From IMG/VR virus record IMGVR_UViG_2609459791_000005, positions 1-7,996 of that record: 7,996 nt of DNA. One strand, given 5' to 3'. The notes under the pieces are model-generated. The model saw only the letters and a list, made by a program, of their open reading frames with translations, was not told the DNA's origin and did not search any database. This document shows positions 1 to 7,996 of the stretch, in pieces (the stretch's first letter is position 1; each line of letters opens with the position of its first letter). The translations under genes were made by a program, and so were the position numbers. This DNA comes from a virus (Duplodnaviria; Heunggongvirae; Uroviricota; Caudoviricetes).

Positions 1-222
1 ATGCAATCCATTAACTTCCGTACCGCGCGTGGCAACCTTTCTGAAGTGCTCAACAATGTTGAAGCCGGGGAAGAGGTTGAAATCACCCGCAGAGGCCGTG
101 AGCCAGCAGTAATTGTCAGCAAGGCTACTTTCGAAGCCTACAAAAAAGCGGCGCTGGATGCTGAATTTGCATCCCTGTTTGACACCCTGGACTCCACCAA
201 CAAGGAACTGGTTAACCGATAA
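1..222 (+). CDS. phd: Phd antitoxin (type II toxin-antitoxin, Phd/YefM family), P1 prevents-host-death protein
   Basis: 73-aa [76 protein letters not shown] matches my recollection of P1 Phd in sequence and length. Its stop overlaps the next ATG (TAATG at 220-224). The window begins at its start codon, so its promoter is not visible. Confidence 0.9.
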
Positions 223-602
223 TGAGGCATATATCACCGGAAGAACTTATTGCGCTTCATGATGCGAATATAAACCGCTACGGCGGCCTGCCGGGCATGT
301 CAGATCCGGGTAGGGCAGAGGCCATTATCGGGAGAGTTCAGGCCAGAGTTGCCTACGAAGAGATCACCGACCTTTTCGAAGTCTCCGCCACCTACCTGGT
401 GGCTACGGCGAGAGGGCATATATTCAATGATGCCAATAAGCGTACCGCGCTAAACAGTGCGCTGTTATTTCTACGCCGTAACGGGGTGCAGGTATTTGAT
501 TCACCTGAACTGGCAGACCTTACTGTAGGCGCTGCGACTGGCGAGATATCTGTATCTTCTGTCGCCGACACGTTACGTAGATTGTATGGTTCTGCGGAGT
601 AG
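222..602 (+). CDS. doc: Doc toxin (Fic-fold kinase, death on curing)
   Basis: 126-aa ORF directly coupled to phd. It contains the Fic-type motif HIFNDANKR (about 417-443). Sequence and length match recalled P1 Doc. Confidence 0.9.
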
Positions 603-606
603 ATTA

Positions 607-786
607 ATGGCACGCAAATACAACAAATTGTCCCGTGAAGCGTTAAAGATGCTTCTTGATGGCGTGAGTCGCCGCGAGGTAAAGCAATACCTGGTTGGTA
701 AGCAAATTGGAGCCAGGACTGCTATTGCTGTGTTATGCCGTCAGGAAATGGTTGTGCTTAAACAGAGAATGCCGGGCAGCAGATAA
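607..786 (+). CDS. small hypothetical protein with helix-turn-helix-like segment; possibly the first P1 post-doc gene by synteny
   Basis: ATG at 607 lies 7 nt after a GGAG (596-599) and just past the doc stop. The ORF track gives an in-frame upstream ATG at 586 that would overlap doc. The segment SREALKMLLDGVSRREVKQYL looks like an HTH. No family recognised from memory. Confidence 0.4.
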   Translation: MARKYNKLSREALKMLLDGVSRREVKQYLVGKQIGARTAIAVLCRQEMVVLKQRMPGSR

Positions 787-813: not shown

Positions 814-1857
814 GTGAAAGCCGTAATTACTCCCTTTGTACAAAAAGAGCTTGGCGTCGCCACATTCAAAGTGGATCAGGAAGTCAGAAAGCTGGTGGAG
901 GCTGGCCGTAAATTTATTATGGAGCCGGTGCCGCGTGAGTTAATCGAGCACATGGACGACGGCCTCGTTGTTTCCGAGCAAACTATGGCAACAAATGAGG
1001 CGTTGCAGCCGTTTTTTAACAGCGATGAACTGTTTCGCCGTATTGGTGGAATTGACGCGCTGGTGGCGTGGTTGCGCAGGAAAGAGGGGCAATGCCAGGC
1101 CGCAGATCGTAGCTGCTGTGACAACCATATTGTCCACGCAGAACGAGACAATAGCGCGGTGTTGTTGTGCTGGCATCACGATAACCATTACCGGATGCGT
1201 GGTTTTAATGAGCTGAAAGAAACGCTGCATAATAATCGCGTTAACTGGATACTGGATGTCGCCCGTCAGGAAATGGGGCTTTCAGATGGCCATGATTTAA
1301 GTATTCAGGAACTGTGCTGGTGGGCTTTCATGCGCAACATGATGCACCTGATGCCGGAAGAAGTTTGCCGTATATCAATAAATAAGATGAAAGCCGCAAC
1401 GCAGGATAGCGGACCTCTGAAAGAGGCGGATATTCGCCCGTATGACGATCGCGCTACAGCATATGTTCAGATGATGGAAGAACGCGCCGCGCCGATGCGT
1501 GCAAAAGTATGCCCTGTGGATGTTGACTCCGACCCTGGCATGGCGCATTTCAAAATACCAAAACTGCAATCGCTAAAATTACCTGAGTACATGGACTTTG
1601 TTGCTTCCCGTCCATGCTGTGGGTGTGGAGCGGCGGGAGCTGGCGCTCACATTACGCCTTATATCGTTCGTCATAGTCGATTATGCGCGCATGACATTTA
1701 CGCAATTCCTCTGTGCCAGTCATGCCAGCGTGATATTGAGCGTGACCGCGATAATTGGGAGAAGACGCACGGTAGGCTGGCGATGCATCAACGATTGTTC
1801 TTTGATTACGCGCTTGGAGTCGGCGCTATCACAAGTCACTCGTCGAGCGTTAGATAA
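814..1857 (+). CDS. Cys/His-rich protein with two HNH-like / DUF968-like zinc-motif units; possibly P1 PdcB by synteny
   Basis: 347-aa ORF with GTG start at 814 preceded by AAAGGTG. Motif units are [25 protein letters not shown] and [38 protein letters not shown]. Three Chi octamers lie inside the gene. The name is from recalled P1 gene order, not a search. Confidence 0.6.
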
Positions 1858-1858
1858 A

Positions 1859-1875
1859 ATTGCTCTAATGTATTG
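1859..1875 (+). promoter_or_regulatory. C1 repressor operator-like site upstream of lpa
   Basis: ATTGCTCTAATGTATTG matches 14 of 17 positions of the P1 C1 operator consensus ATTGCTCTAATAAATTT as I recall it. It overlaps the -35 of the candidate promoter below. Confidence 0.55.
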
Positions 1876-1903
1876 CTATTTCTTTAATCGAGGGTGTTAT
1901 ATT
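1873..1903 (+). promoter_or_regulatory. candidate sigma70 promoter for lpa (-35 TTGCTA, extended -10 TGtTATATT)
   Basis: -35-like TTGCTA at 1873-1878 and TG at 1895-1896 followed by TATATT at 1898-1903. The spacer is long (about 19 nt), so the exact elements are uncertain. Confidence 0.35.
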
Positions 1904-2483: not shown

Positions 2484-3677
2484 GTGACCTGGGACGATCA
2501 CAAGAAGAATTTTGCTCGCCTGGCGCGAGATGGTGGTTACACCATCGCACAGTATGCCGCCGAGTTTAATCTTAACCCTAATACTGCACGTCGTTATCTC
2601 CGTGCCTTCAAAGAAGACACCAGGACAGCGGACAGCCGCAAGCCAAATAAGCCAGTCAGGAAGCCACTAAAAAGCATGATCATTGATCACTCTAATGATC
2701 AACATGCAGGTGATCACATTGCGGCTGAAATAGCGGAAAAACAAAGGGTTAATGCCGTTGTCAGTGCCGCAGTCGAGAATGCGAAGCGCCAAAATAAGCG
2801 CATAAATGATCGTTCTGATGATCATGACGTGATCACCCGCGCCCACCGGACCTTACGTGATCGCCTGGAACGCGACACCCTGGATGATGATGGTGAACGC
2901 TTTGAATTCGAAGCTGGCGATTACCTGATAGATAACGTTGAAGCGCGGAAGGCCGCGCGCGCTATGTTGCGTCGGTCCGGGGCCGATGTTCTGGAAACCA
3001 CTCTTCTTGAAAAGTCTCTTTCTCATCTCCTTATGCTGGAGAACGCCAGGGATACGTGTATTCGCCTGGTGCAGGAAATGCGCGATCAGCAAAAAGACGA
3101 TGATGAAGGTACTCCGCCTGAATACCGTATCGCGAGCATGCTAAACAGCTGTTCCGCGCAGATAAGCAGCCTGATCAACACCATTTACAGCATCCGGAAT
3201 AACTATCGAAAAGAAAGCCTGGAGGCGGAAAAGCACGCTTTGTCTATGGGGCAAGCTGGCATTGTTAAGCTGGCATACGAACGAAAGCGTGAAAATAACT
3301 GGTCAGTGCTGGAAGCAGCTGAATTCATCGAGGCGCATGGCGGGAAAGTGCCGCCCCTGATGCTGGAGCAAATCAAAGCCGATCTGCGTGCTCTTAAGAC
3401 CAATACCGATGATGAGGAAAGGCAAACAGCCGTTGGTGGCCCTTCTCTTGAAGATCTGGACAAAGTTGCGCGAGAACGGGCCGCCAACCGCCGCGCCGAT
3501 GCCGCATTGTGGATTGAGCAGCGTAGGGAAGAAATCGCCGATATCGTTGATACAGGCGGTTATGGAGATGTTGATACTGAAGGTGTATCAAACGACCCAT
3601 GGCTGGAACAAGACCTGGACGAAGACGAGGAGGAAGACGAAGAAGTTACCCGCAAGCTATACGGGGATGATGATTAA
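2484..3677 (+). CDS. pacA: terminase small subunit / pac-recognition protein PacA
   Basis: 397-aa ORF with GTG start 5 nt after AAAGGAAG. N-terminus [42 protein letters not shown] is HTH-like, and the C-terminal tail is acidic ([13 protein letters not shown]). The pac hexamer clusters lie inside the gene. Length matches recalled P1 PacA. Confidence 0.9.
2677..2835 (+). other. P1-type pac packaging site: four TGATCA hexamers, spacer, then three TGATC(A/G) hexamers, each carrying a Dam GATC
   Basis: TGATCA at 2677-2682, 2684-2689, 2696-2701 and 2711-2716. TGATCG at 2807-2812, TGATCA at 2819-2824 and 2830-2835. This matches the published P1 pac architecture of 4+3 hexanucleotide elements flanking the cleavage region. 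Confidence 0.85.
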
Positions 3678-4531
3678 TGGCCAGAAGTTGCGTAACGGAT
3701 CCACGTTGGCGCGAGCTGGTGGCGCTATATCGTTATGACTGGATTGCGGCCGCTGATGTTTTGTTCGGCAAAACACCTACCTGGCAGCAGGATCTGATTA
3801 TTGAGTCTGTGCAGGAACAGGGTAGCAAGACATCTGTTTCGTCTGGTCACGGTACCGGGAAATCAGACATGACTTCTATCATGATCATGTTGTTCATAAT
3901 CATGTATCCCGGTGCCCGAGCCATTATCGTTGCGAACAAAATTCAGCAGGTAATGACCGGTATATTCAAGTACATCAAGATAAACTGGGCTACTGCCACC
4001 AGCCGTTTCCCATGGCTTGCTGATTATTTTGTTCTGACAGAAACCGCTTTCTATGAGGTTACTGGTAAAGGTGTATGGACTGTAGTACCGAAGGGCTTTC
4101 GTCTGGGAAGTGAAGAAGCTCTCGCCGGTGAACACGCAGATCATCTTCTGTATATTATCGATGAAGCCTCCGGTGTCAGTGATAGAGCTTTCGGTATCAT
4201 CACCGGTGCTCTTACCGGACAGGATAACCGCATCTTATTACTGTCACAGCCTACACGCCCAAGCCAACGTCTAAGGAGGCTGCCAATATGGCTACTATCC
4301 CTACCCCAACTCATCCTGAATTTATCTGCCGCTTTTACTCCTGCCAAAAACGTCACTATCACTTCGTTATTGCACCAACAGAAGATGAGGCCCGCTCTCA
4401 GCTTCCTGACGCCCCATGTATTTTCTCTGCCCGTTTTTCCACTGATTCACGCAATTCTCTCAGTTACTGGTGCCTCCCTGTTAACGCTTCTGCTCAGGAG
4501 GGACTATGAGAACGTCATTAGTCACCCGTGA
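3677..4531 (+). CDS. pacB: terminase large subunit PacB, N-terminal ATPase portion only (truncated; 3' tail of the ORF is not protein-like)
   Basis: Start overlaps the pacA stop (TAATG at 3675-3679). Walker A GHGTGKS at about 3845-3865 and Walker [10 protein letters not shown] at about 4145-4171. Terminase-like sequence runs to QPTRPS (about 4264); the frame then reads a Leu/Ser/Pro-rich string to the stop at 4531. Confidence 0.6.
4288..4509 (+). CDS. icd: Icd-like small protein (host cell-division inhibitor family of immI-type antirepressor operons)
   Basis: 73-aa ORF preceded by TAAGGAGG (4270-4277). Its stop overlaps the next ATG as ATGA (4506-4509). The segment [28 protein letters not shown] resembles Icd-like proteins; length matches recalled P1 Icd (73 aa). 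Confidence 0.5.
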
Positions 4532-5624
4532 AGAGATGATCGAGGCAATTGAACAGCACATTGCCTGTATCAGTACCAGGGATATACCAGGCGTTATTGC
4601 CAACTACTTCATGATCACCAAACAACTTTACCGGAGAAAGGACAAGAACTCGGTTCACCGTATCCTGTTGTCTGATATCCGCGAATACCTGCTCGAACAG
4701 GGTCATCTGAATTACGCAACCGTCGCAGCCGAAGCACGCAAGGAGGCACACAGAATGAAAGCAACTAACGTTAAATCAGAAAAAATTCATGCACCTTCAG
4801 TTCAGGAATCGGAGCTGGTGGTTGTTCAGAATCAGTCTGATGAAATTCCCGTTCTGGAATGGCAGGGAGCGCGTGTAGTGACAACCGAGACTCTTGCTAG
4901 AGGGTATGGGACAGAAACAATCCGTATTCGCCAAAATCATCATGAGAACAAAGTACGCTTTGTTGAAGGGAAGCACTTTTTCAAAGTTGAAGGAGAATCA
5001 TTGCGCGAGTTGAAGCACAGAGTAGCTTTAAACTACTCTGTAAAAATTGCTCGCAATGTTCGCTCACTCACCCTCTGGACAGAACGCGGCGCAGCCCGCC
5101 ACGCTAAAATGCTCGAAACCGATCAGGCATGGGCATTCTTTGAAAAACTGGAAGACAGCTACTTCCGACAAAAAGAACAGCAACCGGTCGCAATCCCCCA
5201 GACGATTCCAGAAGCTCTGCGCCTGGCTGCCGAGTTAGCTGAACAAAAGCAACTTCTGGAACAGAAAGCCCACCAGCTAAATCAGCAGCTGGTGGCCGCC
5301 GCTTCTAAAGTCGATTTTGCCGACCGGGTATCAGTAGCTAAAGGGATCCTGATTGGGAATTTTGCAAAGGTCGTTGGACTTAAACAAAATGCGCTGTTTG
5401 CCTGGTTACGGGAGAACGGCATTCTGATAGCGTCCGGAGGCCGTAAAAATGTACCGTTCCAGCAGTACATCAACGCGGGGTATTTCACGGTGAAAGAAGT
5501 GGTGCTGGATGATGAAGATGGCTACCAGATACGGTTGACGCCTCAATTAACGGGTAAAGGCCAGCAGTGGTTGACGCGTAAACTGCTCGATGCTGGTTTG
5601 TTAAAACCGGTGGCGGCTGAATAA
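4506..5624 (+). CDS. ant: phage antirepressor Ant (ORF6N-like domain plus KilAC-like C-terminal domain); nested in-frame second start at 4755 (Ant2-like)
   Basis: 372-aa ORF with AGGAGG at 4495-4500. ORF6N-like stretch [47 protein letters not shown] and KilAC-like stretch [58 protein letters not shown]. An internal in-frame ATG at 4755 follows AGGAGG at 4741-4746. Confidence 0.7.
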
Positions 5625-5631
5625 TGGAAGA

Positions 5632-5661
5632 ATGCCCGGTTGATGCCGGGCATAATTTATT
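5632..5661. terminator. bidirectional intrinsic terminator between convergent ant and c1
   Basis: Perfect 8-bp stem ATGCCCGG / CCGGGCAT (5632-5639 and 5646-5653) with 6-nt loop, T-rich on both flanks. It sits 8 nt after the ant stop and directly after the c1 stop. Confidence 0.6.
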
Positions 5662-6508
5662 GCGCGCTTTCGGGGTTGTCGTTTACTGGCTGCCCCTTCT
5701 TGGTTTTACGGCTGCGCGTAACTGATGCGGCTGACTTAACCTTTTTCTCTTCGCGAGTGATGGCAATTTGTTTTTTTACATTTTCAATATCTGCCAGGCG
5801 ATATATTTTTGCTTGCGGCCAGCGGCCGCAGATGATCGGTTCTATGGAGTCATAAAGGCTAAATTTTGCTTTTTCGAATTCACCGTTGATGATAATTCCA
5901 TCACGGAGAGTTTCATCGCAGATAAACACGCCACACAGTGGCACATGGTAACTAACTGATTTACCATCATTGTAGTTAGGGCTACTGGAAATGTAGTGGA
6001 CGCGCAGCATTGTTTCGCTAAAGCCGTGTACGCGCATACGGAATTTTTCATCCTCCGGGTACTGCTTCATTAGCTCTTTTGTTGCTTCCAGGTTCTCTAT
6101 GTATTTCGCACTGTGCTCATTGATCCCCGCGCTTTTTTGGATGCGAATGTCCTTATCAATCAGATGAATAATGCGGCCAGCGGTCATGTTGACGCTGTTC
6201 ACAGCTTCTGTCTGATAAGTTGTAACCTTACGCACACCGCGAAGGATGTTAGGCACTGGATATAAAATAGTCTTTGGGATATTGAGGTCTGGGTACTGTT
6301 CCAGTTCCCGCGCCATTAAAGTCCATTTATCAATTTCAGCCTGAATGCTGTCAGTTTCTTTGAACGGTAGAACGACAACCGGGCGTACAGGACGACCGTC
6401 GCTGGCTGTATCAACGTGTTGGGCGCGTGCAACAGCTTTTTTTAGAAAGAGATCCCTGAAGCTGACGAACTCCTGGTACAGTTGTTCGCCGTAGACATAA
6501 TTTATCAT
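5657..6508 (-). CDS. c1: C1 master repressor of lysogeny (immC)
   Basis: 283-aa ORF MINYVYGEQLYQEFVSFRDLFLKK... matches recalled P1 C1 in sequence and length. Strong SD GGAGGAGG precedes the ATG on the minus strand. Confidence 0.9.
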   Translation of the reverse strand: MINYVYGEQLYQEFVSFRDLFLKKAVARAQHVDTASDGRPVRPVVVLPFKETDSIQAEIDKWTLMARELEQYPDLNIPKTILYPVPNILRGVRKVTTYQTEAVNSVNMTAGRIIHLIDKDIRIQKSAGINEHSAKYIENLEATKELMKQYPEDEKFRMRVHGFSETMLRVHYISSSPNYNDGKSVSYHVPLCGVFICDETLRDGIIINGEFEKAKFSLYDSIEPIICGRWPQAKIYRLADIENVKKQIAITREEKKVKSAASVTRSRKTKKGQPVNDNPESAQ

Positions 6509-6602: not shown

Positions 6603-6619
6603 AGATTTATTAGTGCATT
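6603..6619 (-). promoter_or_regulatory. C1 operator-like site (Op99e-like) overlapping the c1 promoter, between coi and c1
   Basis: Minus strand reads AATGCACTAATAAATCT, 14 of 17 matches to ATTGCTCTAATAAATTT. A TATAAT hexamer lies downstream on the minus strand at plus coordinates 6576-6581, consistent with an autoregulated promoter. Confidence 0.5.
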
Positions 6620-6828
6620 TATTGTGAGTCTAACTGGTTAGTTGCCATGAGATATTCGATTGTGTCAGTGAGGTCATCCAGGTCGTCTTGGGTGATGCGG
6701 TACTCCTGATTGGATATCTTTGAGTAGTGTTCAGCAATGGCGCGGGCTGCGTCGGTTTCGGCAGGGTCTACAGATAAAGCGTTAGAGCAATGTCTAACGT
6801 CGTCGATGGTTGGTTGAATGAAAGCCAT
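6619..6828 (-). CDS. coi: Coi, C1 inactivator
   Basis: 69-aa acidic ORF immediately upstream of c1 on the same strand. Position and length match recalled P1 coi. Confidence 0.8.
   Translation of the reverse strand: MAFIQPTIDDVRHCSNALSVDPAETDAARAIAEHYSKISNQEYRITQDDLDDLTDTIEYLMATNQLDSQ

Positions 6829-6947: not shown

Positions 6948-7996
<1,049 letters not shown>

Follow-up and report, generated by a model that had tools for sequence, protein, structure and literature searches.

In the published classification of the His-Me (HNH) finger superfamily, proteins with the DUF968 domain share group 7 with DUF1364/YbcO, and a role in recombination akin to that of NinG and Ref was hypothesised for this group by the same authors (PMC5714182). 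In His-Me fingers the general base is a nearly invariant histidine located at the C-terminal end of strand 1, and the metal ligand is a His or Asn in the first helical turn, often with a preceding D/E/H and a polar residue at +4 (PMC5714182). Some inactive His-Me fingers retained DNA binding, and in the PacI-type fingers the nucleophile is a tyrosine (PMC5714182).

In the record of bacteriophage P1, pdcB is annotated as 'unknown protein function; 25 pct identical to putative E. coli protein P76162', the latter being a protein that we take to be YdfU. The RefSeq phage records examined and PHROG 96 call the pdcB product an "HNH endonuclease", and both the gene and its family assignment were previously known. 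The gene is one of the 21 most conserved in 77 P1-like phage-plasmids and has also served as a PCR marker (PMC9603915). In a CRISPRi study of P1 the plating efficiency for pdcB was 0.68 and the gene was scored as non-essential, while lpa, pacA and pacB were essential, with values below 1.2e-7 (PMC10695390). An in-frame delta-pdcB strain has been constructed (PMC9024508, supplement) and scored for plaque formation, and a phage carrying pdcB::kanR remains viable and lysogenises stably (PMC10067587, PMC10999674). Thus, P1 needs pdcB neither for plaque formation nor for lysogeny.

The whole stretch of DNA analysed in this work (7,996 bp, hereafter the window) shares 98.6–98.8% identity with RCS47, a P1-like phage-plasmid, and with many plasmids of E. 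coli. The DNA identity to P1, P7, SJ46 and RCS47 lies between 94.7 and 98.8%, and the gene order is the same. The window contains the following features.

1–222, plus strand: phd, from the ORF list, profile matches and the P1/RCS47 annotation
222–602, plus strand: doc, from the same three sources
586–786, plus strand: pdcA, 66 aa
814–1857, plus strand: pdcB coding sequence, 347 aa, GTG start, TAA stop, encoding a DUF968/YdfU-family protein
1859–1875, plus strand: C1 operator Olpa, transferred from the P1 annotation via a 99%-identical alignment
1873–1900, plus strand: promoter Plpa, transferred in the same way
1946–2398: lpa
2484–3677: pacA
3677–4264, plus strand: truncated pacB, encoding aa 1–196 of the 494 aa of PacB; the ORF continues out of frame to 4531
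4288–4509: icd-like ORF
4506–5624: ant
5657–6508, minus strand: c1
6619–6828, minus strand: coi
7016–7996: IS5-family transposase

The gene at 814–1857 is pdcB ('post-doc B') of a P1/RCS47-type phage-plasmid, and the 347-aa reading frame described there in the initial annotation was recovered exactly, with its GTG start, in the ORF list. The product matches RefSeq WP_032177883.1 ('DUF968 domain-containing protein') exactly over all 347 aa and is 96–99% identical to the PdcB proteins of P1, RCS47 and JL22, differing from that of RCS47 at two residues (W101C and Y185C) and from that of P1 at 12.

The reading frames of doc and pdcA overlap by 17 nt, the gap between the end of pdcA and pdcB is 27 nt, and on the plus strand no promoter-like or terminator-like site was found from doc to the pdcB stop codon. 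Olpa and Plpa begin two bases past this codon and belong to a separate transcription unit. Judging from this gene spacing, pdcA and pdcB are probably co-transcribed with phd-doc, and pdcB would therefore most probably be the last gene of the phd-doc unit and not a late packaging gene. Between pdcB and pacA stand lpa and its C1-controlled promoter, and pacA has a late promoter of its own, LPpac, according to the P1 annotation.

The window follows the pacB gene of RCS47 up to about position 4264 (aa ~196 of the 494 aa of PacB) and then jumps by ~1.24 kb to the icd/ant module; the PHROG matches to PacB end at aa 195–196, and the junction is spanned by none of the 535 matching PLSDB records. The alignment with RCS47 thus confirms, as a deletion, the earlier observation that the nuclease half of the terminase is missing. 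The term 'nuclease half' is used here after the general architecture of large terminases and a PHROG 2 match at aa 33–195, Pfam having reported no domain in the full-length PacB. The suggested link between pdcB and a terminase-deficient element did not find support: this 1.24-kb deletion is private to the window and is unrelated to pdcB, since P1-like phages with an intact pacB carry pdcB as well, and it is absent from the PLSDB plasmids. The window most likely belongs to a plasmid-only derivative incapable of packaging, and pdcB does not compensate for the packaging defect.

Profile searches placed PdcB within the HNH-related families. Pfam DUF968 (PF06147) matched aa 161–337 over the entire profile (1–171 of 171) with 171 bits against a gathering cut-off of 27.8 bits (E=3e-50), 92 bits being reached by the C-terminal unit alone, and PHROG 96 'HNH endonuclease' matched aa 1–340 over positions 1–334 of 334 (E=5e-127). 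NCBIfam yielded no meaningful match, PADLOC no defence family at E<=1, and neither Pfam NinG (PF05766) nor RecA_dep_nuc (PF16786) matched at E<=0.1. An exhaustive HMMER search of 1.84 billion representatives returned 132 clusters, many of them full-length at 22–39% identity, and a second, word-indexed profile search for homologues added four new proteins only. Conservation was read from 61 aligned full-length relatives, the most remote of them about 20% identical. Over its full length, including the N-terminal domain and the CQ...C...CWHHDN module, PdcB is collinear with the YdfU-type DUF968 proteins, and it represents the P1 lineage in the YdfU/DUF968 family within His-Me finger group 7. Apparent fusions of the PdcB N-terminal half to fragments of tail-tip J, portal, capsid or Q proteins (clusters P0040, P0053, P0055, P0063, P0080 and P0084) were dismissed as artefacts of chimeric prediction or mis-assembly, since the domains joined to PdcB are internal pieces of structural proteins.

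The protein can be divided into four parts, with the secondary structure as predicted.

aa 1–90 (814–1083, plus strand): N-terminal alpha/beta domain without a recognisable fold match
aa 94–129 (1093–1200, plus strand): putative zinc module 1, with C94 Q95...C102, strands 106–111 and 114–119 and helix 120–129
aa 161–260 (1294–1593, plus strand): helical middle region, corresponding to the first part of the Pfam DUF968 model
aa 266–320 (1609–1773, plus strand): putative zinc module 2, predicted His-Me finger fold, with strands 280–284 and 297–301 and helix 302–310

The two Cys/His clusters to which the initial annotation drew attention are real and conserved among the 61 full-length relatives. 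In the first cluster C94 is retained in 59/61 sequences, C/H102 in 58/61, C119 and H/C122 in 60/61 each and D123 in 56/61. Q95, W120, H121 (47/61) and N124 (46/61) are also kept, and H121, D123 and N124 are conserved across all clades. The run C119-W-H121-H122-D123-N124 lies at the strand end and in helix 120–129 of this module. In the second cluster the conserved columns are C268, C271, H293, D294, P299, C301 and C/H304, with two putative zinc knuckles, C268-x2-C271 and C301-x2-C304. Not every residue of the motifs quoted earlier withstood the comparison: H105, H108, H279 and H287 are not conserved, and C101, the first C of 'SCC', is private to the window variant, position 101 being W or Y in P1, RCS47 and all other relatives and changed from W to C in the window. 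The W101C substitution adjoins the putative zinc ligand C102. Cys and His interchange at positions 102, 122 and 304 of the alignment, a pattern typical of zinc ligands, and the probable ligands are C94, C102, C119 and H122 in module 1 and C268, C271, C301 and C304 in module 2. The middle region contains the invariant motif S163-x2-E166-x-C168-W169-W170, and the linker at ~aa 190–240 was modelled with low confidence (AlphaFold2 pLDDT 61–69 for aa 191–240).

AlphaFold2 modelling of the full-length protein from a 41-sequence alignment gave a mean pLDDT of 85 and a pTM of 0.59, the latter suggesting that the domain packing is uncertain; a second run limited to aa 1–160 reached a mean pLDDT of 88.8. 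Both clusters were modelled as a beta-hairpin followed by a helix, i.e., as beta-beta-alpha units, in line with the HNH-like fold that had been proposed, which is structurally well supported for module 2. Sequence searches of the PDB with PdcB or with the family profile gave no match, and the link to solved structures was obtained via fold comparison and hhalign, in which the C-terminal unit matched YbcO at 3e-5 and Ref at 1.6e-5. The strong fold matches stem from module 2, which the models identify as a true His-Me finger in agreement with the published placement of DUF968 (PMC5714182), and with this module PdcB possesses the fold that defines the superfamily. Module 1 showed no significant hhalign similarity to module 2, YbcO or Ref, and its structural similarity to HNH enzymes is weak; it would be a zinc-braced beta-beta-alpha unit for which an HNH ancestry is plausible. 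An origin of the two modules by internal duplication was also considered and found no sequence support (hhalign E=0.07–0.13, probability below 1%).

The roles of the active-site positions of PdcB were assigned from the description of the superfamily in PMC5714182. The P1-type set compared below comprises the window, P1, RCS47, JK004 and clusters at 64–81% identity.

34 of the 61 relatives, all distant: positions 282–284 (P/A)HH; 293–294 HD; 301/304/305 C, C/H, H; 309 H
P1-type sequences: positions 282–284 P(Y/F)(I/L/M); 293–294 HD; 301/304/305 C, C, Q; 309 E/A/S/R/V

In the window protein Y283, I284, Q305 and E309 stand in place of four histidines. PdcB does not have the catalytic His of strand 1, the pair Y283-I284 occupying the place of H-H found in 36/61 relatives, nor the metal-binding His residues of the helix, where Q305 replaces the H305 of 35/61 and E309 the H309 of 34/61 relatives, although the Gln or Glu may still bind a metal. 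The more distant P0020 and P0023 proteins (38% identity) are also without the full set of histidines. Relatives with an intact site score 245–272 bits on DUF968 and match Pfam HNHc_6 as well, whereas PdcB, with its 171 bits, has no HNHc_6 match. As for module 1, no conserved residue, whether His or another, occupies the general-base position at the end of strand 1 in any clade of the 61-sequence alignment. A recognisable HNH module that has lost all four of its catalytic and metal-binding histidines is unlikely to cut DNA in that way, and because of this loss PdcB would be unlikely either to cut DNA by its HNH module or to replace the truncated terminase. This clade-specific loss appears to have been previously unremarked, our literature search having returned no paper that notes a clade-specific inactivation of P1-type PdcB.

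At the same time, pdcB is under purifying selection and its putative zinc cysteines are retained. The dN/dS ratio is 0.09–0.12 across the gene and 0.06–0.14 in the C-terminal unit, in comparisons extending up to the 66%-identical JK004 orthologue.

The genomic context splits the relatives into the same two clades, those with intact sites being found in the lambdoid nin region and the His-less ones in P1-like elements. The nin-region placement comes from two loci examined. In a Serratia prophage the gene order is cI-cro-...-RusA-DUF968-...-Q-lysis-terminase, and in SfV orf45 lies between rusA and Q, a separate HNH gene of the same phage, orf53, being located at the end of the linear record beyond the lysis genes. 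This context agrees with the recombination hypothesis of the authors who defined group 7. Among the His-less relatives, JK004 (66% identity) has the order pdcB-lpa-pacA-pacB-c1, in P0020 an lpa homologue follows next after the gene, and P0023 is located in two contigs, one of 95 kb that contains ppp-, hot- and humD-type genes and another in which a ref-type gene is present in addition. The possibility of a conserved PdcA–PdcB pair was rejected: pdcA adjoins pdcB in close P1 relatives only, and no PdcA homologue is present beside pdcB in JK004, P0020, P0023 or the lambdoid relatives.

The explanation that we consider the most satisfactory, and on balance probable, derives P1-type PdcB by catalytic degeneration from an HNH nuclease of the lambdoid nin region; the protein would have been kept as an accessory factor, stabilised by zinc and probably able to bind DNA, that P1 does not require in the laboratory. 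The ancestor would have been a lambdoid-phage protein whose second module had a complete HNH active site and whose gene, with rusA and the Q antiterminator as neighbours, occupied a nin-region slot that is used by recombination nucleases such as lambda Rap/NinG. Since the lambdoid relatives combine this slot with a complete active site, the ancestral job would most likely have been the cutting of branched or recombination DNA. In the clade of P1-like phage-plasmids all four active-site histidines would then have been replaced, with the zinc scaffold and the remainder of the protein staying under purifying selection. The present-day PdcB would perform no HNH nuclease work and would most likely act as a non-catalytic, zinc-stabilised accessory binding DNA or DNA structures, probably expressed weakly by the prophage, from the phd-doc operon, and dispensable for both lytic growth and plasmid maintenance. 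It would stand outside the packaging machinery and be incapable of replacing the deleted C-terminal part of PacB. Both the nuclease activity of the ancestor and the present inactivity of PdcB we infer from the residues. As a more tentative proposal, for which the chances seem to us somewhat short of even, PdcB may represent a conserved pseudo-nuclease. In this view P1-like phage-plasmids would have captured an HNH recombination nuclease from the lambdoid nin region, which lost its four histidines and was retained through more than 60% sequence divergence as a non-catalytic protein with two zinc modules; in plasmid-prophage life, and expressed together with phd-doc, it may be a binder of branched DNA, a decoy or a regulator.

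Retention of the fold and a dN/dS of about 0.1 are points in favour of another reading, in which PdcB would be a still-active nuclease with a non-canonical catalytic set, acting on intermediates of recombination or replication in keeping with the proposal made for the family, and the databases do name the family 'HNH endonuclease'. Such a site might be built in module 2, with Y283 or Y296 as the tyrosine nucleophile or general base and the metal held by Q305, E309 and D311, or it might be formed in module 1 by the conserved H121-D123-N124 (47/61, 56/61 and 46/61). PacI provides a precedent for Tyr in place of the catalytic His (PMC5714182), and position 296 is Tyr in every P1-type sequence of at least 64% identity and Phe in the lambdoid relatives. 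However, position 283 is Phe in some P1-type members (two members of the subclade of at least 64% identity), the His-less relatives at 38% identity (P0020 and P0023) have F/W at 296 and Y/A at 305, and no substitute residue is conserved throughout the His-less clade. The option of module 1 suffers from the want of a conserved general-base residue in all clades and from the weakness of its resemblance to HNH enzymes. We regard an active non-canonical nuclease as unlikely, albeit the main rival of the explanation given above. Decay presents the opposite case. Loss of the catalytic residues, non-essentiality in all laboratory tests and the frameshifted or partial database variants (P0005, P0006, P0015 and P0019) could be read as signs of a functionless relic on its way to a pseudogene in P1-like elements, but the dN/dS remains near 0.1 even for orthologues that are 66% identical and saturated at synonymous sites, a full-length ORF is retained in all P1-like phages examined, the gene belongs to the most conserved fraction of the phage-plasmids surveyed in PMC9603915, and the probable zinc ligands together with many other columns are invariant. 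A relic is thus very improbable.

The initial annotation had asked, as a speculation, whether PdcB has a DNA-cleaving role in an element whose terminase nuclease half is missing. Taken further, PdcB would be a factor like HK97 gp74 that aids the pac cut made by PacA/PacB or even supplies the lost nuclease of PacB. Cooperation between HNH proteins and terminases occurs in other phages, pdcB lies about 630 bp upstream of pacA, and JK004, at 66% identity, retains the order pdcB-lpa-pacA-pacB, of which pdcB-lpa persists at 38%. This proposal is nevertheless largely refuted by the published non-essentiality of the gene, as P1 remains viable after knock-down, in-frame deletion or insertional disruption of pdcB, whereas pacA and pacB are essential. 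Neither cleavage nor a terminase-linked role is supported by the other data: the catalytic histidines are replaced throughout the P1-type clade, lpa with its own C1-controlled promoter parts pdcB from the late promoter LPpac, the intact-site relatives adjoin rusA and Q and not the terminase, SfV having orf53 as a separate HNH gene, and the pacB deletion is private to the window while pdcB is found in the P1-like elements examined. We consider this role the least probable of all the possibilities, with hardly any chance of being correct.

The absence of the HNH catalytic residues from the P1 lineage means that the "HNH endonuclease" label should not be read as activity. A comparison between an intact lambdoid orthologue and P1 PdcB could show what the uncharacterised DUF968/YdfU family does.

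HNH proteins of the HK97 gp74 type are required for the cutting of cos, have retained the catalytic His and are encoded in a late operon beside the terminase and portal genes. PdcB is similar to them in belonging to the HNH superfamily and in the broad vicinity of packaging genes; unlike them, it is dispensable, His-less and part of a different transcription unit, and it does not belong to this type. Lambda Rap/NinG, a branch-specific His-Me nuclease, occupies the same nin-region slot in which the intact DUF968 genes occur; PdcB gives no sequence or Pfam NinG match, and the analogy is one of position and function only. Ref of P1 itself (PDB 3plw; Pfam RecA_dep_nuc), a RecA-directed HNH nuclease, resembles PdcB at the structural and profile level only, keeping its LHH and WHH and having one module and a different N-terminus. 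YbcO of the DLP12 prophage (DUF1364; PDB 3g27), with 96 aa, likewise consists of a single module without the N-terminal and middle regions of PdcB and, unlike PdcB, retains the His of strand 1 and has CH in its helix. The same gene as the one in the window is found in P1 (AAQ14077.1), RCS47, P7 and SJ46, where a protein of 347 aa with 96–99% identity is encoded between phd-doc-pdcA and lpa-pacA-pacB. YdfU of the Qin prophage and proteins of the SfV Orf45 type have in common with PdcB the two-module architecture (about 320–360 aa, 25–32% identity), the CQ...C...CWH(H/C)DN and ELCWW motifs and the putative zinc cysteines. In the YdfU/SfV Orf45 type, however, the PHH...H...H site and the HNHc_6 match are present and the gene lies by rusA/Q in the nin region, while PdcB has lost the four histidines and is encoded in a phage-plasmid, by phd-doc and lpa.

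Alignment to RCS47, the P1-like phage-plasmid that served as our reference, revealed that a deletion of ~1.24 kb ends pacB after codon ~196, the reading frame continuing out of frame beyond the junction as far as position 4531. The open reading frames of this part of the window are as follows.

3677-4531, truncated pacB ORF, with the junction at about 4264
4288-4509, icd-like ORF, retained
4506-5624, ant, retained

As none of the 535 matching PLSDB plasmids (0/535) spans the pacB junction, the deletion appears to be confined to this element, and an element with a pacB truncated in this way should be incapable of DNA packaging. The same event that took away the end of pacB also removed, between about 4264 and 4265, two RNAs recognised by Rfam in RCS47 (5756-5966), namely isrK, which scores 60 bits, and C4 antisense RNA, which scores 75 bits. 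Both are missing from the window. In P1, icd/ant is repressed by C4. The icd-like ORF and ant of the window are left without this antisense repressor, and the pacB stump now lies upstream of them.

In the lpa promoter, which is under C1 control, the hexamer annotated as -10 differs from that of P1 by a single base at position 1896 (TGTTAT in the window vs TATTAT in P1), and the Olpa operator is identical in the two.

The CC pair quoted in the initial annotation of the DUF968/YdfU-family protein PdcB is created by a TGG to TGC change in codon 101 (1114-1116), a Trp-to-Cys substitution at a position occupied by W or Y in all other relatives and adjoining the putative zinc ligand C102. Exactly this variant is represented by WP_032177883.1 and is found on 10 public contigs. 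Outside both zinc modules, the motif D-L-S-x-x-E-L-C-W-W-A (aa 161-171, window 1294-1326) is almost invariant throughout the family, including relatives of 20% identity.

In six proteins of the representative library (P0040, P0053, P0055, P0063, P0080 and P0084), a YdfU-like N-terminal half appears joined to pieces from the interior of portal, Q antiterminator, tail-tip J, capsid or tail-fibre proteins. We rejected these as real fusion architectures; most likely they arose as chimeras during the assembly or gene calling of prophage-rich data. Phage SfV carries its two HNH-superfamily genes in separate regions.

4073-4990 of SfV, orf45, YdfU-type DUF968 gene, between rusA and Q
8854-8987 of SfV, orf53, separate HNH gene, beyond the lysis genes, where the linear record ends

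One further feature adjoins coi.

7016-7996 of the window, IS5-family (ISKpn26/InsH-like) transposase

The transposase arrangement is the same in RCS47, where imcB and an interrupted imcA are annotated on the transposase side of coi; P1 has imcB/imcA, lox and cre on the side of coi at which the window has the transposase.
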